A stretch of DNA of 64,000 nt from a virus (IMGVR_UViG_3300031994_000079:8928-72927), one strand, 5' to 3'; positions 6,581-51,233 are shown, counted from the first letter of the stretch. The notes: generated by a model not told the origin, from the letters alone. Numbers and translations are program-made.

Positions 6581-6853
6581 ATATACGGGATATTGCCTTT
6601 GATGCCATTTGGAAGAAACTATCCAGAAAATATATACGCGGTAGGATATAACCAGAAAAATTTAAAATTTATATACGGCTGGTCCATTCCTGAGAAGTTT
6701 AAAAATATATACACTTGGTTGGCGCCAGCCCCGCATTTTGAAAAATTGCGAGGGCAATGTTTCACGCATGTTTCACGAAGTCGAACATTCATTTGTTGTT
6801 ATTATGCACAAAAACAGTGCTGATTCTTTGTACAATATTTTTGCGTTCTGTGC

Positions 6854-6882
6854 TTGACTATAATAACATTATCACTTATAAT
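6854..6882 (+). promoter_or_regulatory. near-consensus sigmaA promoter inside island
   Basis: TTGACT-N17-TATAAT. Confidence 0.85.
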
Positions 6883-6946
6883 AGATAATGTAAAGAGAAC
6901 ACAGCAACTTGCAAGCTGATAAGCAAGTAAAAAACAGCTCAAGACT

Positions 6947-7393
6947 ATGACAAACACAAAGAAAGCGAATAAGACCACGTTTGAAACTATCAACGCAGTA
7001 GTAAAAGACTTTTCAAATATCTTTACACTTCAAAACAATGAAGTCAATCAATATGCAAGAGTATGTTTTACAGATACATTTAAAAAAGATTATTACAATT
7101 TAATGAGAGATTTCGCTATTTATTATGATAGAAAAGATAGTTATAAAATCAGCATTTCCGACAAGTATTTAACCGCGACACAGTGTAAAGATTTCAAGTC
7201 AACGCATGAAAAGTCAGATAAAACGAAAGCACTTGAGTTTAGTGTAAAAGCTGATAGCATTAAAGATGTAATATTAGAGCTTGTAGCAATTAAGTTATTA
7301 CAGACTAACAAAATCGTTGAATACACGAAAGTTAAAATTAAGACAACGACAGCAAACAAGCGTTCGAATAAGAAAAAAGAGCAAACAGCATAA
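6947..7393 (+). CDS. basic hypothetical protein lacking Gly, Pro and Trp
   Basis: 148-aa ORF between strong promoter and terminator; no GG-containing SD. Confidence 0.75.
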   Translation: MTNTKKANKTTFETINAVVKDFSNIFTLQNNEVNQYARVCFTDTFKKDYYNLMRDFAIYYDRKDSYKISISDKYLTATQCKDFKSTHEKSDKTKALEFSVKADSIKDVILELVAIKLLQTNKIVEYTKVKIKTTTANKRSNKKKEQTA

Positions 7394-7410
7394 CAAACAG
7401 ACATTCGAAC

Positions 7411-7443
7411 AGAGCGAACACAAACAAGTGTTCGCTCTTTTTT
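7411..7443 (+). terminator. intrinsic terminator built without GG/CC
   Basis: AGAGCGAACAC-AAACAA-GTGTTCGCTCT then T-run. Confidence 0.85.
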
Positions 7444-7640
7444 CGTGTTCTGATTTTGTGTTCGAATATCTGTTCGAAAAAATGTTTCACGATATGTTTC
7501 ACGAATTGTGTCAAAATCATACACAATTCTTTATCATTTTAGCGTGTTAAAGTTAGCGACTGCTAACCCCCATACACGTCAACACTTCACAGTGCTAAAG
7601 CGTGCAGAGACGAGAGTTTCTCACTCCCACGTCGGCTGTA

Positions 7641-7728
7641 TTTTTCTAAAGAACTACCGTGTTCTGGCACTTTTTCTAAAGAACTGCGGAAAAGTCGGTT
7701 TTTATTTTGGTAGGATTTTCTAAAGAAC
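7641..7728 (+). repeat. three direct repeats TTTTCTAAAGAAC upstream of packaging operon
   Basis: Copies at about 7642, 7672 and 7716. Confidence 0.8.
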
Positions 7729-7735
7729 GCCCGAG

Positions 7736-7764
7736 TTGATTTTCAAGGTTTCTTATATTATAGT
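7736..7764 (+). promoter_or_regulatory. sigmaA-type promoter of packaging operon
   Basis: TTGATT-N17-TATAGT. Confidence 0.65.
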
Positions 7765-7787
7765 ATGTTTCAAAGAGGTGATTTATA

Positions 7788-8108
7788 GTGGCTGATTTAA
7801 CAGGAGCGAGAAAGAAACTTATAACCGCCCTTAATAAGGTATATGATATGAAGCTCTTATATACAACAAGGGAATTTATGGGGAAAGAAGGTTATCCTCA
7901 TACTATGTATGGTCTTTCTCAGGCTGTTTGGGATGAGGAGAAAGGAAAGTACAGCTCTATGAAGATTTACGAAACGGCTTCTTTAATTCGCCTGATTTTA
8001 TATTTAAGGGATTTATTATTTTTGGCGCAAGGGAAGAGTTTACCTATGGATAATGAAATGTGGAATGAGAAGAGGCCTAAGGAATTATTGGCTTTGGAAA
8101 AGGAGTAG
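7788..8108 (+). CDS. hypothetical protein upstream of terminase
   Basis: 106 aa, GAGGTG RBS, GTG start. Confidence 0.75.
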   Translation: MADLTGARKKLITALNKVYDMKLLYTTREFMGKEGYPHTMYGLSQAVWDEEKGKYSSMKIYETASLIRLILYLRDLLFLAQGKSLPMDNEMWNEKRPKELLALEKE

Positions 8109-8111
8109 TTT

Positions 8112-8558
8112 ATGGGCGCTACGTATATGGGTTTTGGGGCACTTAGAAGAAATACTGTAAGGAATGCGGATGATAAGATATTTGGTGTTTCTTATGCAAT
8201 AAGATTTACCAATAGTGCGCCGAGAGGGGCTAATTTTTCAAAACCTTCTGAGGACAATATACAGATGGTTATTAGGGCAGAAGATGGCGAGGATATTTTA
8301 ATGCAGTTCCAACTTAGCAGGAATAATTTACAGATAAGAGCTTATGACCCTAATGTGGCTGTTTCTGCCAGGGCTGTGGTTGACGGGAAATACCCTTCCA
8401 TAGATACTGTCATTAAGGAAGGGAAAACTTTGGCTGACAGAATGAATGCCCAGAAGCTCAAAGACATTACAAAGAAAACTCTGGCAGGTGTTTCTGTTGA
8501 AAGTCTTTCACGTATTTATAATGAACTTGTCTTGAGAAAGAAAAGGAGGAGAAGATGA
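8112..8558 (+). CDS. hypothetical protein
   Basis: 148 aa, basic C-terminus. Confidence 0.7.
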   Translation: MGATYMGFGALRRNTVRNADDKIFGVSYAIRFTNSAPRGANFSKPSEDNIQMVIRAEDGEDILMQFQLSRNNLQIRAYDPNVAVSARAVVDGKYPSIDTVIKEGKTLADRMNAQKLKDITKKTLAGVSVESLSRIYNELVLRKKRRRR

Positions 8559-9070
8559 CTGTTGATGAGTTAATGGAGAATTTTCAGAAATATACTAATT
8601 ATAAGGAACTTCTCACTACTAATTCAGGCCATGAAATTTCACCTAAAGAACATAAGTTTGTTAATTCTTATATGATAAATGGTGACCCGGCTGTTGCGGC
8701 TAAGGATGCAGGCTATGTTATTAAGAATAAGACAACTTATGAGAATATAGGCAAAAGACTTCTCAAAAAACCCTATATCTATGAGGAGATTCTTTATAGG
8801 ATAGAGGAAATGAATAAGTCTCAGATAGCGGACGAGCAGGAAGTTATGAGATATTTTACAGCAGTCATGAGAGGGGAAGTCAAAGACCAGTTTGACCTTG
8901 ATGCCCCGCTTTCTGAAAGGACATCGGCTGCCAAAGAACTTGCCAAGAGGTTGATAGATGTACCAGCTAAACAGGCAGACACAGCTATTCAGATAAACCT
9001 TAATTGGAGCCGAGAACCAGTTTTAGAAACAGAATATGTAGAATCAGAGGTAGTTGCGGATGCAGTATAA
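8555..9070 (+). CDS. terS: terminase small subunit
   Basis: SPKEHKFVNSYMINGDPAVAAKDAGY...LLKKP HTH and EQEVMRYFTAVMRGE...SERTSAAKELAKR motifs; directly before TerL. Confidence 0.85.
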   Translation: MTVDELMENFQKYTNYKELLTTNSGHEISPKEHKFVNSYMINGDPAVAAKDAGYVIKNKTTYENIGKRLLKKPYIYEEILYRIEEMNKSQIADEQEVMRYFTAVMRGEVKDQFDLDAPLSERTSAAKELAKRLIDVPAKQADTAIQINLNWSREPVLETEYVESEVVADAV

Positions 9071-10337
9071 CCTATCTATCAAAGATAATGTAATTCCTAT
9101 GTTTGATGATGTTTTAGAGGATATTCTGGAACATAATCATGTACATTATGTTTTTAAAGGCGGCAGAGGAAGCACCAAATCATCATTTATTTCTCTTGCA
9201 ATACCTCTTCTTATTATAAAAAACCCCAATATTCACGTTGTTGTTTTTAGAAAAGTCGGGAATACCATGAAAAACAGCGTTTGGGGACAGGTTGTTTGGG
9301 GCATAAATCGTTGGGGACTTGATAGCCTTTTTCATATACCTAAATCTATAGCAAATCCCATAATTTATAAGCCTACAGGGCAACAGATTATGTTTTTTGG
9401 CTTGGATGACCCCAATAAAGTCAAGTCTGTTAAGTTACCTTTTGGGTATATAGCAGTTACTTGGTTTGAGGAACTTGACCAGTATGCTGGAGAAGCGGAA
9501 ATTCGTAAAGTTTTGCAGTCTACCATGCGTGGTGGACCTATATTTTGGGATTTTCGTTCTTTTAACCCACCTATTTCTAATATGAATTGGGCGAATCAGT
9601 ATGCCACGGATGCTATGTCAAGAGAAAATACGCTTGTTACCAGCAATACTTATTTAGATGTACCAGAAGATTGGCTTGGGCAAGCATTTTTAGACGAAGC
9701 AGAAGACCTAAAAGAGACAAATCCACGAGCTTACGAGCATGAATATTTAGGAATACCAGTTGGAACCGGGGGAAATGTGTTTGAAAATGTCGAAGCTCTT
9801 TATATGGATGACGAACTTATAATGAGTTTTGAGAGAATTTACAGTGGAGTGGATTGGGGTTGGTATCCTGACCCATTTGCCTTTGTAAAATGTGCTTTTA
9901 ATGCCAATAGACGAGACTTATATATCTTTGCAGAATTTAGAACCAACAAAATGTCAAATAAGGATACCTATAATAAGCTGTATAATGAGCTTACTTACGG
10001 AAATGATATTCCTTTTATGCGACCAGATGAGATTGTGACCTGTGATAGTGCTGAACCTAAATCTGTTTCTGACTATAAATCTTACGGTGGATATGGTGCC
10101 AGACCTGCTGAAAAGGGACCTGACAGCATAGTTTATTCAATGAAATGGCTACAATCACTTAATCATATTTATATTGACCCAAATCGTTGTCCAGGTACAT
10201 ATAAAGAGTTTGTGGAGTATGAGTATGAAAGAGATAAAAATGATGAAGTCATAAGTGGTTATCCAGACCTGAACAACCACAGTATAGATGCCACTCGCTA
10301 TAGTCTGGAACGTTACTGGAAGAGGAGAGGGCAGTGA
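9060..10337 (+). CDS. terL: terminase large subunit (PBSX-like)
   Basis: Walker A GGRGSTKS, Walker B WFEE, SFNPP coupling motif, nuclease GVDWG and NHSIDATRY. Confidence 0.95.
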   Translation: MQYNLSIKDNVIPMFDDVLEDILEHNHVHYVFKGGRGSTKSSFISLAIPLLIIKNPNIHVVVFRKVGNTMKNSVWGQVVWGINRWGLDSLFHIPKSIANPIIYKPTGQQIMFFGLDDPNKVKSVKLPFGYIAVTWFEELDQYAGEAEIRKVLQSTMRGGPIFWDFRSFNPPISNMNWANQYATDAMSRENTLVTSNTYLDVPEDWLGQAFLDEAEDLKETNPRAYEHEYLGIPVGTGGNVFENVEALYMDDELIMSFERIYSGVDWGWYPDPFAFVKCAFNANRRDLYIFAEFRTNKMSNKDTYNKLYNELTYGNDIPFMRPDEIVTCDSAEPKSVSDYKSYGGYGARPAEKGPDSIVYSMKWLQSLNHIYIDPNRCPGTYKEFVEYEYERDKNDEVISGYPDLNNHSIDATRYSLERYWKRRGQ

Positions 10338-10366
10338 TTGTCCTTAGGACATATGTGTGTTATAAT
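10338..10366 (+). promoter_or_regulatory. sigmaA-type promoter of portal gene
   Basis: TTGTCC-N17-TATAAT; TGTCC-TTA-GGACA palindrome over the -35. Confidence 0.6.
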
Positions 10367-10403
10367 ATATTTGGTAGTGGTAAGTATAAGAGGGAGATAA
10401 ACA

Positions 10404-12287
10404 ATGAACTTTTATGACGTATGGAATAAAATTAAAGAAAGGGTAAAAGGTATGTTTGGTCCTAAAGAAATTGAAAGAGCAATAAAAGTTGCACCTACGC
10501 TATCATCAAAGATGGCAGATGCTATAACATTGTGGAGTAATATGTATGAAGATAATCCACCTTGGCTGAAAGAAGCTACAAAAGATAACCCTACAAGAGT
10601 TGTTTCTTTAGGATTACCTTCTCTTATAGCAAGTGAAAAGGCAAGACTTGCAACTCTTGAAATGGAATCAGAGATTACCACACCTGTCAAAGAAGTTGAA
10701 AAAGAAAATCCTGATTATCAGCCGCCTTCTATTGATGAGACAACAGGTCAGATTTCAATGGGTGTTGGTGAAACAACAATCAAAGAAGATGTACCTATCG
10801 GCAATACAGATAGAGCAGAGTTCCTCAACGAGCAATATAAAAAGCTCAAAAAACATATAAGGAGACAGCTTGAATATGGTATTGCTAAGGGTGGTCTGGT
10901 AATTAAGCCGTATATCATGCTACATGACGATTTTAATGATGCTTCTACACGCACAGAGACAGCTCAAAATGACGATTTAAAATCAAAGTCGATAAATACT
11001 ACAATACGCAATAAAAAACTTCATTTTGACAATAATTTAGACGCTGAGACAAAGAATAAATATAAAGCTGATATAGAATTTGATTTTATACAGGCAGATA
11101 ACTTTTATCCTCTTTCTTTTGACGCAAATGGCAAGATTATTGAGGCTGCATTTATTCAGAGAAGATTGGATAAAGAATACGTTTATAGCAGACTTGAATA
11201 TCATAAACTTGAAGGCAGAACTGTAACAGTAAGCAATTATGCTTATAAAAAGAATAGGACAATAGAGCTTACAAGCCCTAATAGATTAGAAGTTGATTTA
11301 GGACAAGAAGTACCGCTTTCAAGTGTACCAGAATGGGCAGATTTACAACCTACTGTGACTATTGAAGGTGTTGATAGACTTCTTTTTGCATACTTTAAGA
11401 TGCCCGAAGCTAATACAATCGACACTCATAGTCCTTTAGGTGTTAGTGCATATAGTAGAGTAGTCAATCTTATAAAAGACGCCGACTATCAATATTCTCG
11501 TCTGTTATGGGAATATGAAGGTGGTGAATTAGCTATTGATGTTGACCGAGACGCTCTTAAACTTATTACTGATGCTAATGGTAATGATGTTACTCGATTA
11601 CCAATAATGCAGGAAAGACTGTTCAGAAAAGTAGACCTTAATGCAGAAGATACTTATAATGTATTTGCGCCAGAGTTAAGAGACACAGCTATAATAAATG
11701 GTCTTAATACGATTCTTATGAGGATAGAAGATGCAATAGGTCTTTCAAGAGGAACAATCTCAGGTGACCCTCAGTTTGTAGCTACCGAGGCTAAGACAGC
11801 TACAGAAATGAAGATATTAAAGCAGAGGAGTTATTCAACCAATGCTGACATACAGGAAGCCCTTGAAGATGCTCTTAGGGATGTTATTTATGTAATGGAT
11901 GTGTATGCAACATTATATAGCGTAACTACCGAAGGTAAATATGAAGTTTCGTTTGAGTGGGATGATAGTATTCTGGTAGATGCAGAATCAGAGCTTACCA
12001 AGAGGTTATCACTTATAGATGCGGGTCTTGCCTCTAAACTTGAGGTAAGAATGTGGTACTTTGGTGAGACTGAAAATCAGGCTAAGGCAGCATTACAGAA
12101 GATTGACGAGGAGAACAAACGTGCGATTGAGACTAATATGATGGCACAGTCACAATTAGGTCAGGTAGCACAACAGCAGTCTTTTAAAGGATTAGAAAAA
12201 GACCCAGCTACAAAGAACGCTCAATTAAAACAAGAGGGAACTGCTAAACAGACAGCACAGGCAATAAAGTCTAAAAATAACGAATAA
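10404..12287 (+). CDS. portal protein (SPP1/A118-type) with insertions
   Basis: Position after TerL; PLGVSAYS, AKTATE, FEWDDSIL motifs. Confidence 0.9.
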   Translation: MNFYDVWNKIKERVKGMFGPKEIERAIKVAPTLSSKMADAITLWSNMYEDNPPWLKEATKDNPTRVVSLGLPSLIASEKARLATLEMESEITTPVKEVEKENPDYQPPSIDETTGQISMGVGETTIKEDVPIGNTDRAEFLNEQYKKLKKHIRRQLEYGIAKGGLVIKPYIMLHDDFNDASTRTETAQNDDLKSKSINTTIRNKKLHFDNNLDAETKNKYKADIEFDFIQADNFYPLSFDANGKIIEAAFIQRRLDKEYVYSRLEYHKLEGRTVTVSNYAYKKNRTIELTSPNRLEVDLGQEVPLSSVPEWADLQPTVTIEGVDRLLFAYFKMPEANTIDTHSPLGVSAYSRVVNLIKDADYQYSRLLWEYEGGELAIDVDRDALKLITDANGNDVTRLPIMQERLFRKVDLNAEDTYNVFAPELRDTAIINGLNTILMRIEDAIGLSRGTISGDPQFVATEAKTATEMKILKQRSYSTNADIQEALEDALRDVIYVMDVYATLYSVTTEGKYEVSFEWDDSILVDAESELTKRLSLIDAGLASKLEVRMWYFGETENQAKAALQKIDEENKRAIETNMMAQSQLGQVAQQQSFKGLEKDPATKNAQLKQEGTAKQTAQAIKSKNNE

Positions 12288-12446
12288 ATGTTTGCATTTT
12301 CCTTTATGTTGTAGTATATTAAATGTGTAGAGGGATTACCTCTTCAACATATCGTTCAGCATAAGAACATTTAAAAAAATGTCGTTCCAGTGGAGAGAGG
12401 CTCCACATTTAATCAAAAATCATTCAGAATGTAGGAGGAATTGAAT

Positions 12447-13127
12447 ATGGATTTTTTGAAAGCACTTTTTGAGGGCAACGAAACTGGTACTTTGACTTAT
12501 GAGCAGTTCGCTTCGGCCGCTAAAGCAAGCGGAATAAAGTTGGCAGATTTGTCAAAAGGCGAATATGTGGCTAAGAAGAAGTACGAAGATGACCTAAATG
12601 GCAAAGAAACTCTTATAGCGGATTTAAATGCCACTATTGATACGAGAAACACAGACTTGAAAGCACTTCAGGAGAAACTGGACAAGGCGGGTACAGATTC
12701 TACACAGATAGAGAATCTATCTGGTGAGCTTGAAAAATTAAGAAAAGATTATGATAAGGCAACAAAGGAATATAATTCTAAGTTGCAGAAACAGGCATAT
12801 GAGTTTGCTGTAAAAGAATTTGCTGGTGAGCAGTCATTTTCAAGTAACGCCGCAAGAAGGGATTTCATCAATTCTATGCTTGCAAAGAATTTGCCAATGG
12901 AAAACGGCAATATAATGGGAGCAAAAGATTACATGGCAGAGTATGCTAAGGACAATAGTGATGCTTTTGTAGTCAAAGAGGAACCTAAGCCGAATGATAA
13001 TTTGCCTAAGTTCGCAAGTAATACTACAGACCCGAATAATGCGGGAGCAAATGGCCATAAGCAGTCCCTGTCAGAACTTATGAAAGCAAAAAATGATAAC
13101 CCGAGCATGATAATAAACTTCGGGTAA
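12447..13127 (+). CDS. capsid scaffolding protein (GP20-like)
   Basis: Coiled coil between portal and capsid genes; AGGAGG RBS. Confidence 0.8.
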   Translation: MDFLKALFEGNETGTLTYEQFASAAKASGIKLADLSKGEYVAKKKYEDDLNGKETLIADLNATIDTRNTDLKALQEKLDKAGTDSTQIENLSGELEKLRKDYDKATKEYNSKLQKQAYEFAVKEFAGEQSFSSNAARRDFINSMLAKNLPMENGNIMGAKDYMAEYAKDNSDAFVVKEEPKPNDNLPKFASNTTDPNNAGANGHKQSLSELMKAKNDNPSMIINFG

Positions 13128-13149
13128 GTTATAACAGGAGGATATTATA

Positions 13150-14508
13150 ATGGGAGAATATTTTGATTCCAAGTTGTTTAATGGAGAAGTATTCCAGAAG
13201 TACGTAGACCGTATTCCTAACGTACATCTTAACCAGCTTATTCAGTCTGGCGCTATTGTAGCAAGGCCTGAACTTGCACAGTCAATGTCAGACCAGGTTG
13301 GTGGTAACTATCTTACAACTCCCCTTAAGGGACTGATTGGCGGAGATCCACTTAACTATGATGGTGTTACAAACATTACGGCTACTTCAACAAAGACTTA
13401 CAGCCATTCAAGAGTTGTTGCAGGTCGTGCTAAAGCATGGACAGAAAAGGACTTCTCTTATGATATTACCGGTGGTGTTGATTTCATGGAGAACGTAGCA
13501 CAGCAGGTTTCTGAATACTGGACAGAGCAGGACCAGAAGACCCTTATTGCTATACTTGAGGGTGTGTTCGCTATGGTAGATGATGCTGGTGCTGAGTTTG
13601 TAGATAAGCATACCTATGACATTTCAACTCTTACGAATAGTGAAGGTAAGACTGGTCTTATGGATGCTACAACTCTTAATACTGGTATTCAGAAGGCATG
13701 TGGTGACCATAAGGGTAAGTTTAGTCTGGCTCTTATGCACTCAAAGGTTGCTACAAACCTTGAGAATATGAAGGTTCTTGTATACCTTAAGTACAATGAT
13801 GCAAACGGCATGGAGAGGGATCTCTCAATCGCAACGCTTAACGGCAGAATGGTTATTATAGATGATGATATGCCTGTTGAGAACATTGGCACAACTGCTG
13901 GTGTTTATACAATTACAATCGGTGGTTCACCTGCTACTGGTGAGAAGTACACAGTAGATGATGCATCCTTTACGGTTGCTTCTACTGAGACTGCTACCGC
14001 AGTCGCTACTGGACTTGCTTCTGCCCTTGGTTCAAGCACTAAGTATACCGTATCACGTGATGGTGCTGTACTTACTCTTACAGAGAAGTCAGGACAGTAT
14101 GGTGTTGGTAAGCCTGCTGTTAATGCAGAGCCTGCTTCTGGTTCTTCGTCAGTAGGTGGAACAATCACTGCTGTAACTGCTACCGCACCTGTTGTAACAC
14201 CTAAGTATACAACTTATGTATTTGGACAGGGTGCAATCGAGTACACGAACTGTGGCGCTAAAGTTCCTTACGAAATGGATCGTAATCCTTATCAGAATGG
14301 TGGTGAGGACACACTTATTTCTCGTCAGAGAAAATGTTGGGCACCTTATGGAATTAGCTTCACAATGGAGAGTATGTCAACGCTTTCACCTACCAACACA
14401 GAACTTGGTCTTGGCGTAAACTGGGAGCTTGTTAATACCGGTGGTAGTGGTAAGCTGTATATTCCTCACAAGGCTATACCTATTGCAAGACTTCTGTCTC
14501 TTGGCTGA
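13150..14508 (+). CDS. major capsid protein with internal Thr/Ala/Gly-rich insert
   Basis: FDSKLFNGEVF...GRAKAWTEKDF...HSKVATNLE...GRMVIIDD coat-protein motifs. Confidence 0.9.
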   Translation: MGEYFDSKLFNGEVFQKYVDRIPNVHLNQLIQSGAIVARPELAQSMSDQVGGNYLTTPLKGLIGGDPLNYDGVTNITATSTKTYSHSRVVAGRAKAWTEKDFSYDITGGVDFMENVAQQVSEYWTEQDQKTLIAILEGVFAMVDDAGAEFVDKHTYDISTLTNSEGKTGLMDATTLNTGIQKACGDHKGKFSLALMHSKVATNLENMKVLVYLKYNDANGMERDLSIATLNGRMVIIDDDMPVENIGTTAGVYTITIGGSPATGEKYTVDDASFTVASTETATAVATGLASALGSSTKYTVSRDGAVLTLTEKSGQYGVGKPAVNAEPASGSSSVGGTITAVTATAPVVTPKYTTYVFGQGAIEYTNCGAKVPYEMDRNPYQNGGEDTLISRQRKCWAPYGISFTMESMSTLSPTNTELGLGVNWELVNTGGSGKLYIPHKAIPIARLLSLG

Positions 14509-14538
14509 TAGCCTATAAACATAGAAGGAGGTTTTGTC

Positions 14539-14982: not shown

Positions 14983-14989
14983 GGTTAAT

Positions 14990-16293: not shown

Positions 16294-16305
16294 GAGGAAT
16301 AAACA

Positions 16306-16827: not shown

Positions 16828-16848
16828 TTGAAGGAGGATGATAGTTGT

Positions 16849-17349: not shown

Positions 17350-17352
17350 TAA

Positions 17353-40097: not shown

Positions 40098-40099
40098 GT

Positions 40100-40395: not shown

Positions 40396-40492
40396 CAGCG
40401 AGTTATGACGGAACTCACTGGTTGAGAACTAAATAATTTGCTGACAGTAAAAGCTAACGTATTTGTGCCGTCATCACAGTACGTTAGCTTTT
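40396..40492 (+). ncRNA. structured 5' leader with complementary 7-nt loops (upstream of initiator)
   Basis: Loop ATGACGG (40405-11) complementary to loop CCGTCAT (40468-74) of a 13-bp terminator-like stem. Confidence 0.65.
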
Positions 40493-40508
40493 ATCTTTCT
40501 AAAGGAGT

Positions 40509-41384: not shown

Positions 41385-41393
41385 GAGGTATGT

Positions 41394-43345: not shown

Positions 43346-43354
43346 GGAGAACTT

Positions 43355-44329
43355 ATGTATATAAATAATGTACTATTTAATTGTGAGCTTTCAGATATAA
43401 TATCAGAAGCAAGAAGTCAGTTGGCTATGAATGGAATAGATATAGGTAAAACTCGTGATGCGCCTAAAGATATAATGGTATGCTGTCCGTTTCATGGTGA
43501 ACGTAGACCAAGTGCTGGTATAAGAAAAGACGATGGTCAATTTAATTGCTTTGCTTGTCATGAAAGCCATAGTTTAGCTAAAGTAATATCACAGTGGTTT
43601 GGTAAGACAGATGATGTAATAGGCGCATTTGGTTGGCAATGGTTATTAAAGAATTTTGCAACAATGCAAGTAGAGGAGAGAAAAGATGTTAAATTGGATT
43701 TTAGTCGTAATAGGGGTATACGTAATGACGATAGGGTTGATAGTATCAATAGCGAGGATAATAGATATATTTCAGAACAGGAGTTAGATAGCTACCGATA
43801 TACACATCCATATTGGACAAAACGTGGAATAATTGAAGATTGGTTAATAGATTTGTTTGATTTAGGATATTCACCAAAAGAACGTATGATAACATTTCCA
43901 AATTTAGATAAATATGGTAATTGTTTATTTGTTGCAAAAAGAAGTATTGATAAAAAATTCTTTAATTATCCTAATAATGCAAACAAACACGTTTACGGTA
44001 TATATCAATTATATCAGTTGCAACAATTTCCAAAAGAAGTTTATATAACGGAGAGTATGATTGATTGTTTATTATTATGGCAATATGGTAAGTATGCTTG
44101 TGCTTTAAATGGTCTTGGTAATAATATACAGTTTAAAGAATTATCAGAAATGCCATGTAGAAAATTTATTCTTGCTACTGATTCTGATAATGCTGGTATG
44201 AAAGCGAGAGAACGTATTAAGCAAAATGTAAGAGGAAAAATGTTCACAGAAGTTATATTACCTGCTATGAAAAAAGATATAGGTGAATGTAGTGAGAAGG
44301 AAATAAAAAATCTTGTAGAGGTATTTTAA
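43355..44329 (+). CDS. dnaG: DNA primase (CHC2 zinc finger plus TOPRIM)
   Basis: CPFHGERRPS...CFAC; ITESMID; ATDSD. Confidence 0.92.
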   Translation: MYINNVLFNCELSDIISEARSQLAMNGIDIGKTRDAPKDIMVCCPFHGERRPSAGIRKDDGQFNCFACHESHSLAKVISQWFGKTDDVIGAFGWQWLLKNFATMQVEERKDVKLDFSRNRGIRNDDRVDSINSEDNRYISEQELDSYRYTHPYWTKRGIIEDWLIDLFDLGYSPKERMITFPNLDKYGNCLFVAKRSIDKKFFNYPNNANKHVYGIYQLYQLQQFPKEVYITESMIDCLLLWQYGKYACALNGLGNNIQFKELSEMPCRKFILATDSDNAGMKARERIKQNVRGKMFTEVILPAMKKDIGECSEKEIKNLVEVF

Positions 44330-44425
44330 AATGACGGCATTAAAAATAAACGAGTAAAACCTGAAGATTTACAAAAATATTTAGATTTAGGTTATGTAAA
44401 AGGTAGATTAACACCTTGGCAATAA
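44330..44425 (+). pseudogene. remnant C-terminus of a homing endonuclease
   Basis: No in-frame start; NDGIKNKRVKPEDLQKYLDLGYVKGR resembles the terminal DNA-binding motif of phage HNH/GIY-YIG endonucleases. Confidence 0.5.
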
Positions 44426-44530
44426 AATTTACAAGAAGTGTTTTAACCTATTGCAATCTATATACATTTATGTTATAGTATATTTGTACAGAACAGTACA
44501 CACAAAAGCAGAAAGGAGGCAAAGACAAAA

Positions 44531-45160
44531 GTGAATGAAGAAATCTTCGGACAAAGATATGCAGACAGACGTACACATAGGTCAGGCGTATTATTAGAGT
44601 ACGATAGCAAGTACAAAACATATCTTCTTGAATCCCAAGATGGTAAAACATTCAATATAACATCAGCACAATTCAATAAGAATTGGAAACTTACTGATGA
44701 AGTAGCAGAAGTAGAACCAATAGAAGCTGAACAGGCAGAAGTTGGTGATAAACGCTACAAAGGACCATCAGAAGAACAGAAAGACGAGCTGAATAAGATA
44801 TTGGAAACATTCTTTTTAATCGGCAAAGAGTATGTAGATGAATTTCAAAATGAAATAATCACTATAAAGCCAGAGCCGTATAAGAGAAGATTTTTGATGA
44901 AAGTCAGACATCATACAGTATTTATAATGGATTGTATGTTGAGACGGAGAAATTGCAGAGTATGGTTAAGAGAGTATATAAGCAGTTTAATGTCTTGGAC
45001 AGTTAAGCCAATATCAATTAAGCGTTATCCTGGTACTAATATGAATACAGCAGTAGAGTTTCCGCTTGAAAATCTTAAAGAAGTGTTAGATGATTTAACA
45101 GCAGTTGTAATTCAAGATATGACAGAAATGGAGGAAAAAAGAAATGGGGTGATAAAGTGA
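44531..45160 (+). CDS. hypothetical two-domain protein
   Basis: 209 aa, own promoter (TGTTATAGT near 44471) and AAAGGAGG RBS. Confidence 0.7.
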   Translation: MNEEIFGQRYADRRTHRSGVLLEYDSKYKTYLLESQDGKTFNITSAQFNKNWKLTDEVAEVEPIEAEQAEVGDKRYKGPSEEQKDELNKILETFFLIGKEYVDEFQNEIITIKPEPYKRRFLMKVRHHTVFIMDCMLRRRNCRVWLREYISSLMSWTVKPISIKRYPGTNMNTAVEFPLENLKEVLDDLTAVVIQDMTEMEEKRNGVIK

Positions 45161-45894
45161 GATATGCAGATGGTCAATATAGAGAAAAACTTTATACAGT
45201 ATATATGCATATCACACCAAATAATAAGAGTTATGTAGGTATAACTTGTCAATCACTTGAATGTAGGTGGAATGATGGAGATGGTTATAAACATCAGAGA
45301 TTATTTTGGCGAGCAATTCAAAAGTATGGTTGGGAAAATATAAAGCATATAGAATTGTTTAATGGTTTGTCTTTTGAAGATGCAAGTAATATTGAAAAAG
45401 ATTTAATTAGACAGTTTGAATCTAATAATCCAAAATATGGATATAATTTGACAGATGGTGGTGAAGGTATGTCAGGTTATAAGTTTACAGCAGAGCAGTT
45501 AGCTTGGCGTAGTAAAGTTAGTACTGGTAGAAAACATACACAAGCTACAAAAGATAAATTGTCAAAGATGAAGAAAGGTTCAAAATTAAATCTTACAGAT
45601 GAACAAAGACAGGCTTGTGCTGAAAGAGGTAGAATACAAGGTATAAAGAATAAAGGTCGTAAGCATACAGAAGAAGAATGTAATAAGATAAAAGAAGCAG
45701 TACATAAGCGTTATGCAAACGGCGGTATAGCACCACATTGTAAACCTCATACTGAGGAGACAAAACGTAAGATAAGCGAGAAGCAAAAAGGACGAGTTAT
45801 ATCAGAAGAACACAGAGAAAAATTAAGACAAGCCGCGTTAAAACAGTGGCAAAGACAAAAAGGAGGAATTAAAAATGAGATTCAGTTACAATGA
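45157..45894 (+). mobile_element. free-standing GIY-YIG homing endonuclease with NUMOD3 repeats
   Basis: VYMHITPNNKSYVGIT, GYNLTDGG, repeated HT.ETK.KIS. Confidence 0.85.
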
Positions 45895-46522
45895 GGCAGA
45901 TAATTACGGTAGCAATGGTGGTAGTAGTTTTTTCACATTACGTGATGATGGTGATACAGCAAGAGTACGTATTATGTATGGCAGTATTGATGATGTAGAA
46001 GGTCTTTCAGTACATGAGATAGACCTGAACGATAAGAAAAGGTATGTAAACTGCATCAGAGAATATAATGACCCGATAGATATGTGTCCTCTTTGCAAAG
46101 CAAACTACAAGATACAGGCTAAGTTGTTTGTACCGTTGTATAATGAAGATACAGGCGAAACACTTGTTTGGGAGAGGGGTAAGAAGTTCTTTGGTAAGAT
46201 TTCAGATTTGTGTACAAGATATGATAACCTCGTTTCAAGAGTGTTTGAGATTGTAAGACATGGCAAGCCGAAAGATACAGGTACAACATATGAGATATGG
46301 CCTGTAGGTGATAAAGACAATACAACATTTGAAGATTTGCCTGAACCTGTAGATGTTATGAAAGGTATTGTGCTTGATAAGACAGCAGATGAACTTGACT
46401 ATTATCTGAGGTATCATGAGTTTCCCGATAATGATGCTCCTGCGAGAGAAGAAGCACCGAGACGCAGAGAGCAGTCAGTACCTATGAGAAGAACTCCTGC
46501 GAGAGGAAATGAGGCATTCTAA
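45875..46522 (+). CDS. single-stranded DNA-binding protein (gp32-like)
   Basis: FFTLRDDGD, HE...YVNC...CPLC, WERG; acidic/Pro tail ending in F. Confidence 0.75.
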   Translation: MRFSYNEADNYGSNGGSSFFTLRDDGDTARVRIMYGSIDDVEGLSVHEIDLNDKKRYVNCIREYNDPIDMCPLCKANYKIQAKLFVPLYNEDTGETLVWERGKKFFGKISDLCTRYDNLVSRVFEIVRHGKPKDTGTTYEIWPVGDKDNTTFEDLPEPVDVMKGIVLDKTADELDYYLRYHEFPDNDAPAREEAPRRREQSVPMRRTPARGNEAF

Positions 46523-48054
46523 TGGCATTGATAAATATACCTAAGCGAAGCACAAAAGAAAAAGATTTGGCACTTGCTAAGAAGTCAAATTCTGTTCAGA
46601 AAGCTATCCCCACTGTAAAGGGTGGGGGTAGCATTATTAACAAGATACAAACTATCCAAGCATTAGTTGAGACTAAACTTGGTAAATATAAAGATGAATA
46701 TATTATCATTCGTGATGAAGCCACGTTGATTGATTATATAGATGTATGTATAGAGAATAGTATAATATCTCTTGATACAGAGACAACCGGGTTAGACCCG
46801 TTGCTTGATGAGATAGTTGGTATATGTATCTATACACCGGGTGAGAAAGGTGCATATATTCCTATCAATCATGTTTCATATATAACATTAGAGCGAGTAG
46901 CTAACCAGTTAGATATAGATTTTTTGAATGAACAGTTTACAAGGTTATATGATTGTGAATTAGATAGCATAATGTTTAATGCCAAGTTTGATATAAGATT
47001 TATGAGAAACAAAGTTGGTGTTAAGAATATTTATTGTACATGGGATAGTTATTTAGCTCAAAGGTGTTTGAATGAGAATGAGCCACATAATGGTCTTAAA
47101 TTGTTACATGAGAAGTATGTTCTCAACGGTGAAGGTGATGCGTGGTCATTCGGTGATTTATTTAAGAATATATCATTTTCATATATACCGATTAAGACAG
47201 CATATCTGTATGCGGCACGTGACCCGGTTATTACATATGAGCTTTATGATTATCAGAGGAAATATCTGAAAGAAGATACCGATAGGGAAGATTTAAGAAA
47301 TGTGTATTGGATATTTAAGAACATAGAAATGCCGTGTGTATCTGTAGTAGCCGATATGGAAGATACTGGTATAGAGTTCGATTTCGATTATAATGAGAAG
47401 TTGAAAGAGAAGTACCATAAGTTATTGGAAGAACGTATACAGAGCTTTAACGAAATGTGCGGTATGTATTCTAAAGAAATACAAGAGTATAGAGACACAA
47501 CAGGTTCAAGTTGTAAATTAGATGACCCTATAAATATAAAGTCACCAACACAGCTTGCAATACTTCTCTATGATATAATGGGATGTGAAATACCAAAAGA
47601 TAAAAAGACCAAGAAAGAAGTACGGTCAACAAATGAAGAAACATTGAAGTCAATGGATAATCCTATTGCAAAAGCAATATTAGATTATAGAGAGTTTTCC
47701 ACTATTGTAGATACATTCATAGATAAGTTGCCTGAATGTGTCAATCCTAATGATGGTCGTATTCATTGTCAGTTTAATCAGTACGGTGCAAGAACAGGTA
47801 GATTTAGTAGTGAGAACCCTAATATGCAGAACATACCTTCTCATAATAAAGAGATAAGACAGATGTTTAAAGCAACAGATGATGAATCTATTTTGGAAAC
47901 AGAGAATGATATATTTATGGTGGACAAATTTGATGAAGTATACACATCTAATGGTTGGGTTAGTTGTAGCAAATTAAAAATCGGTGATGATTTAGACGGT
48001 TGTATAATCAAATCAATAAAACTCCAAGATGATAAGTATATTATAGGTGTATAG
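46522..48054 (+). CDS. polA: DNA polymerase family A, N-terminal piece (3'-5' exonuclease, thumb, start of palm)
   Basis: SLDTETTG, FNAKFD, YAARD; ARTGRFSSENPNMQNIP; ends in about 56 extra aa. Confidence 0.9.
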   Translation: MALINIPKRSTKEKDLALAKKSNSVQKAIPTVKGGGSIINKIQTIQALVETKLGKYKDEYIIIRDEATLIDYIDVCIENSIISLDTETTGLDPLLDEIVGICIYTPGEKGAYIPINHVSYITLERVANQLDIDFLNEQFTRLYDCELDSIMFNAKFDIRFMRNKVGVKNIYCTWDSYLAQRCLNENEPHNGLKLLHEKYVLNGEGDAWSFGDLFKNISFSYIPIKTAYLYAARDPVITYELYDYQRKYLKEDTDREDLRNVYWIFKNIEMPCVSVVADMEDTGIEFDFDYNEKLKEKYHKLLEERIQSFNEMCGMYSKEIQEYRDTTGSSCKLDDPINIKSPTQLAILLYDIMGCEIPKDKKTKKEVRSTNEETLKSMDNPIAKAILDYREFSTIVDTFIDKLPECVNPNDGRIHCQFNQYGARTGRFSSENPNMQNIPSHNKEIRQMFKATDDESILETENDIFMVDKFDEVYTSNGWVSCSKLKIGDDLDGCIIKSIKLQDDKYIIGV

Positions 48055-48185
48055 ATTTTTCACAACAAGTCACAAGCAACTTATCAGAGGAAAATATTGG
48101 AAGAAATGAAAAAAGGTTATTGTATGTTTAGGAGAAGAAAATATACTTTTGACATACATTGGTATAGAAAGGGAGGTGATGCCAA

Positions 48186-48245
48186 ATGAAAAAGTCGATA
48201 AGAGTTAGAAAAAATTATGTTCTAATGTCTGCCGACTATTCTTAG
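48186..48245 (+). CDS. polA: PolA motif-A mini-ORF (19 aa) ending in TAG
   Basis: GGGAGGTG RBS; MKKSIRVRKNYVLMSADYS*. Confidence 0.75.
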   Translation: MKKSIRVRKNYVLMSADYS

Positions 48246-48246
48246 G

Positions 48247-49155
48247 TCACAGCAAGAGCCAAAGGTCATGACTATGATGTGTCAAGACCCGAAGATGATA
48301 AAAGCGTATCAAGAAGGGAGAGATTTATATGCGGAGATTGCGTCACTTTCTTTCAATACAACTTATGATAATTGCCTTGAATTTAGACCCGACGGCACTA
48401 CTAACAGAGAAGGTAAAGAGCGTAGGAGCCAGGCAAAATCTATATTATTGGGCGTTCTCTACGGCAGAGGTGTCCCAAGTATTGCAGAACAGCTTGGAAC
48501 AACTACGAAAAAGGCTCAAACAATCAAAGATAGTGTAATGAAAGGTTTTCCTGCTATTGAAAAATTTGAACAGGATAGTTTAAGAATGGCAGAAGATTTA
48601 GGATATGTAACTACATTGTGGGGTAGAAAGAGAAGATTACCAGATTTACAATTAGATGAGTTTGAGTTTAAATGGAAAGATGGTGCACCACAAGATAATG
48701 ATGTACTGGATTTTGATGAAGAAATAGATTATAATGTACCTATAGAAACGCAGAAAAAATATCTTAGGTTATTAAGTCAAGCAAGATTCGGTGAGAAGCG
48801 TAAGATATTTGAAAAAGCTAACGCAGAAGGAATATGGATAATAGATAACGGGGCGAAGATAGCAGATGCACAAAGGCAGTGCGTAAATGCAAGAATACAA
48901 GGTTCAGCCGCAGATATGTCAAAGTTAGCTATGATAAAAATAGGTAATGATAAGATATTAAAAGAATTAGGTTTCAGAATGTTAGTGCCAGTACATGATG
49001 AAATCATAGCTGAATGTCCTAAAGAACATGCAAAGAAATGTGTAGAGAGGTTTTCACAGTTAATGTCAGAAGCACCAGGTGAAAAGTTTACAATACCTAT
49101 TAAGTGTGATGTAGATGTAACAGAATGTTGGTATGGAGATAAAGTTAAAATTTAG
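48247..49155 (+). CDS. polA: DNA polymerase family A, C-terminal piece in the +1 frame
   Basis: SQQEPKV..., motif B RSQAKSILLGVLYG, NARIQGSAAD, motif C VHDE. Confidence 0.9.
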   Translation, partial: SQQEPKVMTMMCQDPKMIKAYQEGRDLYAEIASLSFNTTYDNCLEFRPDGTTNREGKERRSQAKSILLGVLYGRGVPSIAEQLGTTTKKAQTIKDSVMKGFPAIEKFEQDSLRMAEDLGYVTTLWGRKRRLPDLQLDEFEFKWKDGAPQDNDVLDFDEEIDYNVPIETQKKYLRLLSQARFGEKRKIFEKANAEGIWIIDNGAKIADAQRQCVNARIQGSAADMSKLAMIKIGNDKILKELGFRMLVPVHDEIIAECPKEHAKKCVERFSQLMSEAPGEKFTIPIKCDVDVTECWYGDKVKI

Positions 49156-49975
49156 TATATTTATAACATCACATAATAGTCCATATGAATGTACATCTTA
49201 TGTTTCATTGAGGACAGCAGGATATACAGGTGACATATATATCGTTATAGATGATACTGACCCTCAGTTTGATGAATATGATAGGTCAGGAAATAATCTT
49301 GTAGTATTTCATAAGCAGGATTATGTCAAGAAATTAGATATAGGTATGTCTAAATTAAATCCTCAATTAGCCGCTGTATTGTATGCAAGGGCAGCTGTAG
49401 AAGATTTTGCAAAGCAAATGGACTTAGATTATTTTATGGTAATGGATGATGATATATATGGATTTAGGTATAGATATTCTGATAAAAATAAGTTATGTTC
49501 AAAGCCTGTTGAAAACTTTGATATTCTAATAGATAATTATATTCAGTTTATGAAAGAAAGTAATTCATTATGCCTATCTTTTGCACATGATGGCTCATTT
49601 ATAGGTGGGTTAAGTGCTATACCTAAAATATTGGAACGTAGGTCTTGTCATACAATATTTTTACGTGATACGTCAAAAGAGTTTGAGTGGAAGTTTGCAG
49701 TAAATGAAGATTATGTATCATCATTATTGTATGCTAACATAGGAAAATTGATGTTGACATTACCATTTGTTCAGAGAAATATATCAGGTATGAATGATAG
49801 ACAAGAAGGTATGCATGATTTATATGAGAGTACCACAGAGTTTCAAAGAGCTTTCTATAATGTAATAGCTTGTCCTTGGACATGTGTTGTTGCTGAATAT
49901 AATAATCATTTTGTTGTTAGAACAAATAAGTCCACAGCATATCCAAAAATAATAAGTAGCAGATATAGGAGATAA
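49133..49975 (+). CDS. GT-A glycosyltransferase, TAGT/GREB1-like (putative DNA base modification)
   Basis: IFITSH, IVIDDTD, YARA, VMDDDI, NED motifs. Confidence 0.7.
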   Translation: MEIKLKFSIFITSHNSPYECTSYVSLRTAGYTGDIYIVIDDTDPQFDEYDRSGNNLVVFHKQDYVKKLDIGMSKLNPQLAAVLYARAAVEDFAKQMDLDYFMVMDDDIYGFRYRYSDKNKLCSKPVENFDILIDNYIQFMKESNSLCLSFAHDGSFIGGLSAIPKILERRSCHTIFLRDTSKEFEWKFAVNEDYVSSLLYANIGKLMLTLPFVQRNISGMNDRQEGMHDLYESTTEFQRAFYNVIACPWTCVVAEYNNHFVVRTNKSTAYPKIISSRYRR

Positions 49976-49978
49976 ATT

Positions 49979-50374
49979 ATGCCATTGATAAATGTAAAGA
50001 AAAAGGAAATTGATAATACATATACAACTAAAGTACAGATACCACAATATATTCCAAAACAAGAAAAGCCACCTATAACAGGGTTAGTAGACACAGAGAA
50101 GTATTCAAAATTACTTTATAATATCAATAATAGTAATGTGTCTGAGGAAGAGAAGAAGTTTTTGAGGTTTGCGGCTGCAAGACATTTAGCATTTAACTAT
50201 TCATTGATAGCTGATTACTATGCCAACGCAGATAAAGAAATGCAAGAACTTATGGAACAGTCAGCGTTAGTAATATTGGATATAGATGATGCTATAGCTA
50301 ATGGATATGTTAAGTTATCGGATAGCATAAAGCAGTTATTAAAGGAGAGTGGTGAACTTGCATCTAAGGAGTAA
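49979..50374 (+). CDS. accessory protein between the two glycosyltransferase genes
   Basis: FLRFAAARHLAFNYSLIADYYA...LVILDIDDAIANG. Confidence 0.6.
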   Translation: MPLINVKKKEIDNTYTTKVQIPQYIPKQEKPPITGLVDTEKYSKLLYNINNSNVSEEEKKFLRFAAARHLAFNYSLIADYYANADKEMQELMEQSALVILDIDDAIANGYVKLSDSIKQLLKESGELASKE

Positions 50375-51233
50375 TTTTGTTGTATTTATATTATCTCATG
50401 GACGACCTAATAAAGTTTACACTTATGACACAATACGAAAATCAGGATATACAGGGCCTATTGTATTAGTGTTAGATAATGAAGATAATACTATTGACGA
50501 ATATAAGCATGTATATGAAGCAAAAGAAAATACAGGTGTATATGTATTTGATAAATTAGATATAGCTAATAGGTATGACGAAGTTGATAGAGGTAAAGAT
50601 AGACGTACAATATTTTATGCGAGAAATGCCTGTTTTGAAATAGCGAAAAAATTAGATTATACGTATTTTTTGGAACTCGATGATGATTATGTAAAATTTA
50701 GAAGTCGAGTAGATATAGATGGTAAGTTTGCAACTATATATCATACTGACCTCGATTCTTTATTTGAGATAATGTTACAATTTTTAGATGATACAAAAGC
50801 CTATACCGTAGCGTTTTCACAAACAGGAGATTTTATAGGTGGTATGGGTAGTAGAGTTTATAAAGAAAAATTATCAAGAAAGGCTATGAATAGTTTTTTC
50901 TGCACTATAGAGAGACCGTTTAAGTTTCTTGGTAGAATAAATGAAGATGTAAATACATATGTTAGTGAAGGTTCAAAAGGTAATCTTATGTTTACAATAG
51001 CTGATGCGTCATTAGACCAGACACAAACACAATCAAATTCTGGCGGTATGACAGAAATGTACCTAAATTCTGGCACATATGTGAAATCATTTTTTACTAT
51101 AATAACTAATCCATCAAGTGTCGTTATACATGAAATGGGTAGCTCTCATAAGAGAATACATCATTTAATAGATTGGAACAAAGCAGTACCAAAAATAATA
51201 AGTAGTAACTTCAAGAAAGGAGAGAAAGTATGA
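50349..51233 (+). CDS. GT-A glycosyltransferase, TAGT/GREB1-like (paralogue)
   Basis: ILSHGRP, YARN, ELDDDY, NSFF, GRINEDV, SGGMT. Confidence 0.75.
   Translation: MVNLHLRSNFVVFILSHGRPNKVYTYDTIRKSGYTGPIVLVLDNEDNTIDEYKHVYEAKENTGVYVFDKLDIANRYDEVDRGKDRRTIFYARNACFEIAKKLDYTYFLELDDDYVKFRSRVDIDGKFATIYHTDLDSLFEIMLQFLDDTKAYTVAFSQTGDFIGGMGSRVYKEKLSRKAMNSFFCTIERPFKFLGRINEDVNTYVSEGSKGNLMFTIADASLDQTQTQSNSGGMTEMYLNSGTYVKSFFTIITNPSSVVIHEMGSSHKRIHHLIDWNKAVPKIISSNFKKGEKV

Follow-up and report, generated by a model that had tools for sequence, protein, structure and literature searches.

The window analysed here is a stretch of 64,000 nt (IMGVR_UViG_3300031994_000079:8928-72927) from a phage genome of 72,927 bp. 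Upstream of its terminase genes lies a short transcription unit in which the dinucleotides GG and CC are almost absent; several palindromes precede this unit, and a pair of glycosyltransferase genes is found in the replication module. Positions are counted from the first letter of the window, and the strand is given where one applies:

1791–1804: palindrome GGTTGGTACCTACC, upstream of an early promoter
4517–4530: palindrome GGTGGGTGCCTACC
5462–5517: two palindromes (5462–5475 and 5504–5517)
6210–6223: perfect palindrome GGTAGGTACCTACC, with a terminator on one side and an early promoter on the other
6214–6571, plus strand: adjacent early unit, GG-free on the sense strand only, with a promoter and a 76-aa acidic ORF (p76) at 6330–6560
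6717–6730: palindrome GGTTGGCGCCAGCC, abutting the left desert edge
6755–7633: GG-free stretch, from gap and dinucleotide counts
6758–6782, plus strand: operator-like ATGTTTCACG repeat in tandem, flanking the unit on its left
6854–6882, plus strand: near-consensus sigma-70 promoter TTGACT-17-TATAAT (11/12 matches)
6947–7393, plus strand: slot gene p148, an ORF of 148 aa
7411–7438, plus strand: intrinsic terminator of the unit, its stem made without GG or CC
7482–7506, plus strand: another tandem repeat of ATGTTTCACG, flanking the unit on its right, beside TTCGAA repeats
7642–7764, plus strand: three TTTTCTAAAGAAC repeats and the promoter of the packaging/structural operon (TTGATT-17-TATAGT), forming the right boundary of the slot
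7788–8108, plus strand: conserved 106-aa gene, the anchor used to locate the slot in relatives
8555–10337, plus strand: terS (Terminase_2) and terL (Terminase_3), then an SPP1-type portal
49133–49975, plus strand: TAGT-family glycosyltransferase 1 (Pfam PF20691, 57.8 bits)
49979–50374, plus strand: ParB-like 131-aa gene (ParB-like PHROG match), between both TAGT genes
50349–51233, plus strand: TAGT-family glycosyltransferase 2 (Pfam PF20691, 110.6 bits)

The longest gap between two GG in the genome reaches 881 nt (6753–7634 in the window) for a mean spacing of 23.4 nt, and the second-longest (357 nt, 6214–6571) adjoins it; no other dinucleotide displays a comparable outlier gap. Between 6755 and 7633, local base composition predicts 22.9 GG and 26.3 CC, versus 0 and 9 observed, respectively, six of the nine CC being contributed by a CCCCC and a CCC run at the right-hand end of the stretch. 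The GG/CC-poor core (6731–7566) retains 0 GG and 3 CC, whereas approximately 20 of each are expected, as G and C each make up approximately 16% of the desert bases. CG and GC are not depleted in this desert, nor are GG and CC in the rest of the genome (observed/expected: 0.92 and 1.15, respectively). The GG-free early unit put forward in the preliminary description is thus real, and corresponds to one complete unit with promoter, ORF and terminator. These results support a self-contained, strongly promoted early transcription unit, kept free of GG/CC targets by selection. It is, however, not visibly transcribed first, as had been proposed, since at least seven other sigma-70-type early promoters are located upstream; these others are good sigma-70 promoters containing CC/GG. 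The adjacent p76 unit (6214–6571) also contains 0 GG (versus 13 expected), but 14 CC.

The protein encoded by p148 contains no Gly, Pro or Trp, and its gene is devoid of a Shine–Dalgarno sequence, GGAGG being used by almost all other genes of the phage. No match to p148 was retrieved from Pfam, PHROG or NCBIfam, and 25 homologues were found, nearly all of them without Gly or Trp; the one in L002 is preceded by a related copy of the ATGTTTCACG tandem repeat. The predicted structure associates an α+β domain with a disordered K/T-rich tail, and the slot proteins share a basic, disordered tail rich in K, T and A. A structure search with the p148 model returned common α+β sandwiches (Z 5–8), from which no functional call can be made: the C-terminal ‘double-wing’ domain of T4 MotA (Z 6.6, rmsd 6.0, 100 residues aligned) was tied with unrelated entries, and the resemblance to an Alc-annotated viral model was weak (E 0.035). 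The slot unit consists of a single ORF and includes no HTH gene.

Deserts of the same kind occur in relatives, always just upstream of the homologue of the conserved 106-aa gene. Stretches of 600–1050 nt with zero or nearly zero GG/CC were detected in L002, L003–5, L007, L008, L010, L016 and G015, and weaker deserts in L013, L014, L019, G016 and G017. Their ORFs are partly without detectable similarity to p148 (hhalign probability <1%), that of L010 lies on the opposite strand, and the deserts continue for 100–450 nt beyond the promoter, in flanks that are not transcribed. Conservation of the trait holds down to 43–57% protein identity, and the 1051-nt desert of G015 contains a single GG run, a GGG placed where the ribosome-binding site would be. 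In L006 and L009, the p148 homologues are relaxed (in L006, with the Shine–Dalgarno sequence GGAGG and a GC content of 49%), and p181 of L019 lies in a desert, its homologues in G007 having 51% and 60% GC: the ban was gained and lost within gene families. Strand-asymmetric units were also found, namely p76 (GG-free and CC-rich), p134 of L013 (GG-free only) and p175 of L012 (CC-free only). From this comparison of sequences, the GG/CC ban belongs not to one gene but to a position in the genome, the slot of the last early unit before terS/terL.

Such a desert could in principle be a by-product of low G+C content, of amino acid composition or of context-specific mutation (e.g. CC-directed deamination). 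Indeed, the GC content of deserts (28–35%) is below genome averages, and K, T, N and E are frequent residues in desert proteins. However, the base composition still predicts the approximately 20 GG and 20 CC mentioned above, and when the deserts are pooled, the depletion is specific to GG/CC (observed/expected: 0.04, versus 1.1 for CG and 1.56 for GC), the expected products of deamination showing no enrichment (TC/GA: 0.98; CT/AG: 1.10). When synonymous codons were resampled with amino acids fixed, 8–16 GG/CC were expected per ORF, where 0–4 are seen, and the observed value was reached in at most 10 of 2000 resamplings for each of the nine desert ORFs. Avoidance is visible in the protein sequence, which lacks Gly, Pro and Trp, as well as at synonymous sites, at codon junctions and in non-coding flanks. 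The persistence of the trait at low protein identity and the position of the sole exception in G015 also argue against a by-product, a reading contradicted by both the pooled ratios and the resampling, and to which we attach next to no credence. As the ban recurs with ORFs that have diverged or are unrelated, whichever strand they lie on, and holds at synonymous sites, it is maintained by selection.

Six matches to the palindrome GGNNGGNNCCNNCC were detected in the window (1791, 4517, 5462, 5504, 6210 and 6717), versus 0.06 expected (100 shuffles), and a seventh copy is found upstream, elsewhere in the genome. These palindromes (consensus approx. GGyrGGTACCyrCC) are found only in the early region and often directly adjoin the left edge of the desert. 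They had been described as ‘GG/CC-only’ operators: the palindromes themselves are real, but ‘GG/CC-only’ is an overstatement, as their centre is also conserved. They are best read as operator-type sites at early-unit boundaries in one subclade.

Both TAGT genes exceed the Pfam gathering cut-off for this family (27.5 bits) and also match PHROG 842 (1e-30 and 2e-62). With polA just upstream and the beta clamp just downstream, the reported presence of two TAGT-like glycosyltransferases beside the polymerase is confirmed. The ParB-like gene is the best-conserved of the three-gene module (56–73% identity in relatives). No match at E ≤ 1 was obtained for TET/JBP (PF12851) or C5-methylase (PF00145) in six frames of the complete genome, nor for a ThyA-like dCMP/dUMP hydroxymethylase (PF00303) in a genome search; this genome is thus devoid of these enzymes to make a glycosylatable base. 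Our best reading is that TAGT1, the ParB-like gene and TAGT2 form a fixed part of the replication module in a broad clade, and are candidate DNA-glycosylation genes.

The preliminary description had linked these three features in one system, in which virion DNA would be modified at GG/CC for protection, and a unit free of target sites, transcribed first, would enable the expression or unmasking of the rest. Spelt out, the TAGT pair and the ParB-like protein would glycosylate phage DNA at GG/CC, the modified DNA would be poorly expressed, and the palindromes would be modification-dependent operators. Several observations are consistent with this model. Of the genomes with a completeness of at least 90%, all four with a desert (G000, G015, G016 and G017) and two with a partial desert (G014 and G011) carry the TAGT module, the palindromes are confined to the early region and often lie at the desert edge, and the weak likeness of p148 to MotA and to the Alc-annotated model would fit a transcription factor. 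However, nine genomes of the same set (G007, G008, G012, G013, G021, G022, G023, G026 and G028) carry the TAGT module without a desert, a comparison confounded by phylogeny (P of approx. 0.18 if genomes are treated as independent). The co-variation expected from the model thus did not emerge: the TAGT module is not sufficient for a desert, although it may be necessary, since every complete genome with a desert carries it. Likewise, palindromes exist without a desert (L006, and L012, which has only a CC gap), and deserts without palindromes (L016/G001, L019 and L014). The missing base-modifying enzymes and the good sigma-70 promoters of other early units, despite their CC/GG, also speak against the model, and nothing in the sequence points to a GG/CC context for any modification. 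What stands of it is a target-free, selected and strongly promoted early unit; the tie to the TAGT genes and palindromes is not supported, and we consider the complete model improbable. The desert, the TAGT genes and the palindromes are all real and, with a probability of roughly 50%, are three separate things: a slot unit evading a GG/CC reader, fixed genes of the replication module and the operators of a subclade.

In this reading, the slot encodes a small protein that evolves fast, and comes with a strong host-type promoter, operator-like repeats and a terminator of its own. Across many phages of this rumen-type clade, selection has stripped every GG and CC from the entire unit, on both of its strands. 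This is most likely because a factor obliged to read GG/CC on duplex DNA would find nothing to act on there. This reader is probably a host DNA-targeting defence, for which a CRISPR effector with a CC/GG-type PAM is a candidate, the only reader of that specificity known to us. Yet a PAM explanation needs both strands to be clean, so that the strand-asymmetric p76, L013 p134 and L012 p175 count against it. If packaging follows the SPP1 headful model, the slot unit would enter the cell ahead of the other early units; as the assemblies are circular with arbitrary starts, its position next to terS fits a first entry only through this paradigm. Its product might then be an anti-defence or host-takeover protein. 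Regarding the host, the only genome match was a 24-kb contig binned in a Bacteroidaceae MAG, an assignment which fits poorly since the phage has strong GGAGG ribosome sites. Tentatively, a GG/CC-duplex reader distinct from the known CRISPR effectors and restriction enzymes may act in Firmicutes-type hosts of this clade, and unrelated phage lineages may have convergently rewritten one early, possibly first-entering unit to escape it, even at the cost of Gly, Pro and Trp.

The reader could instead be encoded by the phage, either as a nuclease or nickase degrading host DNA at a very short CC/GG-type site, or as an abundant protein that coats or silences DNA, perhaps the one encoded by the slot, so that the site-free cassette would stay intact and expressed. 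A ban spanning both strands of the whole unit, regulatory flanks included, is consistent with this scenario, as are the basic disordered tails of slot proteins (frequent in DNA-binding proteins), and the strand-asymmetric neighbouring deserts could fit a one-strand activity such as template-strand nicking. We nevertheless consider it unlikely: no gene of G000 co-varies with the desert among the 11 relatives compared, the asymmetry has no consistent sense (p76 lacks sense-strand GG, L012 p175 lacks CC), and all other phage genes, being full of GG/CC, would need separate protection. Selection could also act on RNA, a GG/CC-free mRNA resisting an endoribonuclease with GG sites or avoiding pairing with the anti-Shine–Dalgarno sequence. 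The lack of a Shine–Dalgarno sequence in the cassette, the sense-strand-only absence of GG in p76 and L013 p134, and the GGAGG regained by the relaxed L006 homologue all point in this direction. Still, CC is as strictly banned as GG in most deserts, the ban continues beyond the terminator and, on the other side, for 100–450 nt ahead of the promoter, it is independent of ORF strand (L010), and the L012 asymmetry is opposite, which makes RNA-level selection a poor candidate.

A total dinucleotide ban over a whole unit is a very strong footprint of selection, kept across deep divergence and reshaping protein composition. It points to a widespread GG/CC-reading activity, whose identification would add a new player to the phage–host conflict, be it a defence, a takeover tool or a DNA mark. 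Since a self-modification system with a bootstrap gene is not what comparative data show, the focus shifts from the glycosyltransferases to the cassette and the host.

We found no publication describing the complete exclusion of one dinucleotide from an entire gene unit, although several known systems share some of its traits. The first-step-transfer region of T5 and the gene 0.3 region of T7 are motif-free, first-entering DNA with anti-defence genes. In Autographiviridae, motif-free leading regions decide restriction sensitivity, as for the Murciavirus early region (PMC12455610). In its sequence, to which the likeness is limited, the slot unit resembles these regions: it is short, has strong host-type promoters, lacks a target common in the rest of the genome, and is highly variable between relatives. 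Here, however, the banned element is a bare dinucleotide on both strands, with a strictness sufficient to remove Gly, Pro and Trp. CRISPR PAM depletion is known from phage genomes, where published cases are mild and genome-wide (PMC4246573), including CC PAM depletion in phages facing type I-F systems (PMC12174588). GG/CC is indeed the kind of two-letter word required by PAM-reading effectors, and its loss removes all protospacers; yet the depletion seen here is total, affects one unit of 0.7–1 kb and leaves the rest of the genome undepleted, and the strand symmetry expected from PAM avoidance is found in the main deserts but not in p76, L013 p134 and L012 p175. A strong promoter and a small ORF recall anti-CRISPR operons, from which the unit differs by its single ORF and the lack of an aca (HTH repressor) gene. 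TAGT-family glycosyltransferases take part in phage DNA hypermodification, as in the T6-type second glucosylation (PMC13390438), and two Pfam TAGT genes likewise lie in the replication module here. Unlike TET-associated or T-even-type glycosylation, however, this genome encodes no TET/JBP, C5-methylase or hydroxymethylase, and TAGT genes and deserts do not co-vary. In chloroviruses, the nicking enzyme Nt.CviPII is paired with the methylase M.CviPII at CCD, showing that some viral enzymes recognise sites of only two or three letters, CC among them; no homologue turned up here, nor does any gene track the desert. At the RNA level, T4 RegB endoribonuclease cuts GGAG, and ACA-less or GCU-less genes escape the mRNA interferases MazF and MqsR, respectively. 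Like these genes, the slot gene is entirely written without a short word but, whereas their avoidance is limited to the transcript's sense strand, the slot unit is clean on both strands and in the flanks that are not transcribed.

The GG-free early unit reported in the preliminary description is real. In the source genome (G000; 72,927 bp, of which the window covers 8928-72927; 35% GC, every gene on the + strand), which is a circular assembly since its contig ends share a 72-nt overlap, and which CheckV rates as 100% complete, GG dinucleotides recur with a mean spacing of 23 nt, yet the longest gap reaches 881 nt (6753-7634). The second longest, of 357 nt (6214-6571), adjoins it, and no comparable outlier was found in G000 for any other dinucleotide. 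Indeed, given local base composition, positions 6755-7633 contain 0 GG versus 23 expected and 9 CC versus 26 expected, with only 3 CC within 6731-7566. The stretch harbours one complete, self-contained unit of promoter, ORF and terminator, in a genome where GGAGG-type ribosome sites are strong at nearly all genes:

6854-6882: promoter TTGACT-17-TATAAT, inside the GG-free unit
6947-7393, + strand: ORF of a 148-aa protein (p148), without a Shine-Dalgarno sequence
7411-7438: terminator of the unit
Both flanks of the unit: tandem ATGTTTCACG repeats

Four (A)TATATAC repeats, approximately 30-50 nt apart, occupy 6575-6720, between the unit encoding a 76-aa protein (p76) and the GG-free stretch; similar ATATATA repeats lie at 2010-2150 of contig L010, 5' of its own GG-free stretch. 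Upstream, at 118-6300, six or more early promoters of nearly identical sequence (AACTnCCGATTGaAA ... TATGcTATAcT, then TTGTAA) form a family, spaced approximately 760-860 nt. An Rfam search of the cassette returned nothing, and a Pfam search of the early-region proteins gave no matches. Elsewhere in this genome, an Rfam GP20-a cis-regulatory RNA (12350-12441; 57 bits, above the gathering score) precedes the scaffold and capsid genes, and a stand-alone 125-aa protein (L001:3312-3689) matches domain Ia of DNA ligases, their NAD+-binding N-terminal part (Pfam Nlig-Ia, E 3.5e-28).

p148 contains no Gly, Pro or Trp. Its relatives, taken from the protein database and JGI contigs, comprise 25 metagenomic homologs (46-85% identity), almost all devoid of Gly and Trp; protein and alignment searches of IMG/VR found none. 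No family in Pfam, PHROG or NCBIfam matched p148, and neither the Atlas nor a PDB sequence search yielded anything usable. Its AlphaFold model (pLDDT 72) displays an alpha+beta sandwich followed by a disordered basic tail, for which the best Foldseek matches in PDB and BFVD had E>=0.01. VIA-align scores all fell within the background range, led by a Mediator subunit (Z 8.0), with MotA, a T3SS chaperone, YbjN and AcrIIA11 at Z 5-7; structural neighbours at Z 5-8, also in the background range, include the MotA C-terminal domain, T3SS-chaperone/YbjN-like folds, frataxin and AcrIIA11.

Around the p148 homologs of contigs L002, L003-5, L007 and L008, stretches of 600-770 nt are free from any GG or CC, each of these deserts (stretches without, or nearly without, both dinucleotides) spanning promoter, ORF and terminator. 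Phages related through terL (72-88% identity) carry deserts at the matching place, directly 5' of the homolog of a conserved 106-aa gene that precedes terS/terL. The ORFs in these deserts show no similarity to p148 that hhalign could detect (probability <1%) and all lack Gly, Pro and Trp; that of L010 lies on the opposite strand. In the 1051-nt desert of genome G015, the sole GG run is a GGG at the ribosome-binding-site position. Proteins of this slot, the last early unit upstream of terS/terL, share a common design, in which a tail rich in K, T, A, E and Q follows a domain of approximately 120 aa. Transitive BLAST connected L019 to G007 (1e-44), G014 to L019 (3e-9), G014 to L013 (7e-6), and both L012 and L019 to p148 (approx. 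0.04), weak links which suggest that several desert ORFs may form one very fast-evolving family; none were obtained for L010 p177, L016 p153 and G015 p186. At L003, L004, L005, L007, L011, L014 and L019, many independent metagenome contigs end within approximately 0.2-0.6 kb of the desert, on either side. Such breaks could mark a physical end of the DNA or a hot spot of hypervariability.

The p148 homologs of L006 and L009 lie outside deserts, and that of L006 has regained the Shine-Dalgarno sequence GGAGG, with 49% GC and CC at expectation. L019 p181 is in a desert, but in the complete genome G007 its clear homologs use all three of Gly, Pro and Trp. These two G007 copies (L021:7833-8399 and L021:5112-5885) have 60% and 51% GC in a genome of 44% GC, the former with a C-rich sense strand. 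Slot genes freed of the ban, i.e. the G007 copies and that of L006, show no drift to genome-average GC; their composition lies at the other extreme. A search of the desert-less genomes G007 and G008 for another banned word found none, their slot genes being merely GC-rich.

The preliminary description had tentatively linked the GG-free unit to GG/CC-only operator palindromes and to two TAGT-like glycosyltransferases by the polymerase, proposing that virion DNA is modified at GG/CC for protection and that the GG-free unit is transcribed first, enabling expression or unmasking of the rest. Both glycosyltransferase ORFs are indeed members of the Pfam TAGT family, located between a split polA upstream and the clamp gene downstream:

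49133-49975, + strand: TAGT1
Between the two: ParB-like gene (131 aa)
50349-51233, + strand: TAGT2

Within the replication module this three-gene block is conserved, and TAGT2 has >340 relatives in IMG/VR. The family A DNA polymerase upstream (46522-49155) is encoded by two separate ORFs (46522-48054 and 48268-49155). Neither TET/JBP, C5 DNA methylase nor ThyA-like hydroxymethylase was found in the complete G000 genome. Upstream of the window, L001:3718-5704 holds two genes, one for a protein of 336 aa that bears a weak PP-loop ATPase signature (QueC/TtuA/MnmA-like, E 3e-6 to 8e-4), the other for an N6_N4 DNA methyltransferase; the pair is kept in desert-bearing and desert-less relatives alike and is possibly a second DNA-modification module.

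Desert and TAGT genes in genomes at least 90% complete (for G016-G028, the desert scan covered the 6 kb upstream of terL)
Desert present, TAGT present: G000, G015, G016, G017
Desert present, TAGT absent: none
Desert partial or weak, TAGT present: G014, G011
Desert partial or weak, TAGT absent: none
Desert absent, TAGT present: G007, G008, G012, G013, G021, G022, G023, G026, G028
Desert absent, TAGT absent: G010, G019, G020, G024, G025, G027

No co-variation emerged, the desert-less genomes comprising nine with TAGT and six without. Clearly, TAGT is not sufficient for a desert, as those nine carry it. It may be necessary; every desert-bearing genome in the table carries TAGT. This association is confounded by phylogeny, since all close desert-less relatives carry TAGT too, and all four desert genomes would fall in the TAGT-bearing group by chance with a probability of 715/3876 (approx. 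0.18, genomes treated as independent). No G000 gene was found to track desert presence among relatives.

The palindromes are also real, GGNNGGNNCCNNCC being present in six copies in the window versus 0.06 expected, all between early transcription units and typically 3' of a terminator and 5' of a promoter. However, their centre is conserved too (consensus approx. GGyrGGTACCyrCC), so that they are not 'GG/CC-only'; the element is an ordinary 14-bp palindrome of putative operator type. Limited to one subclade, palindromes accompany deserts in G000, G015, L002, L003, L007, L008 and L010, occur without a full desert in L006 and L012, and are missing from the desert-bearing L016/G001, L019 and L014. 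Thus, with palindromes and deserts each occurring alone and TAGT carried by nine desert-less genomes, the proposed link is not supported, and the best-supported reading is that desert, TAGT genes and palindromes are three separate features. Modification at GG/CC by the TAGT pair is accordingly given lower weight.

As for the ban itself, synonymous-codon randomisation with amino acids fixed predicts 8-16 GG/CC per ORF versus 0-4 observed, hence the ban operates at the level of nucleic acid, in coding and non-coding sequence as well as at synonymous sites. Mutational or compositional bias is rejected as its cause by this resampling together with the pooled deserts, in which GG/CC alone is depleted (observed/expected 0.04; CG 1.1, GC 1.56). 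A constraint on RNA is a less favoured explanation, because the absence of GG/CC continues for 100-450 nt upstream of the promoter, as would be expected if the constraint lay on the DNA. Some units near deserts are clean on a single strand only: the p76 unit (6214-6571) and L013 p134 are GG-free with CC present, and L012 p175 is CC-free with GG present. In the favoured reading, the desert is a target-free early cassette, in which some reader of GG/CC on duplex DNA finds no site. Among known factors, PAM-dependent CRISPR effectors alone read a two-letter CC/GG word (PMC12174588, PMC4246573). Such an effector is a candidate for the reader here, although the strand-asymmetric neighbouring units fit a PAM poorly; a reader encoded by the phage itself is considered less probable. 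The terL and portal genes of G000 share approximately 69% nucleotide identity with those of Clostridium phages; a host call via terL, from one match to a 24-kb contig in a Bacteroidaceae MAG, was deemed unreliable.

The cassette lies directly 5' of an SPP1-type terS/terL/portal set. Assuming packaging rightward from pac, with the last-packaged end exiting first as in SPP1, it would be the first early unit to enter the cell. Among known principles, the closest is found in phages with stepwise entry, such as T5 and T7, whose leading region is motif-free; the desert cassette would likewise be free from targets. A motif-free leading region is also described in Murciavirus (PMC12455610).
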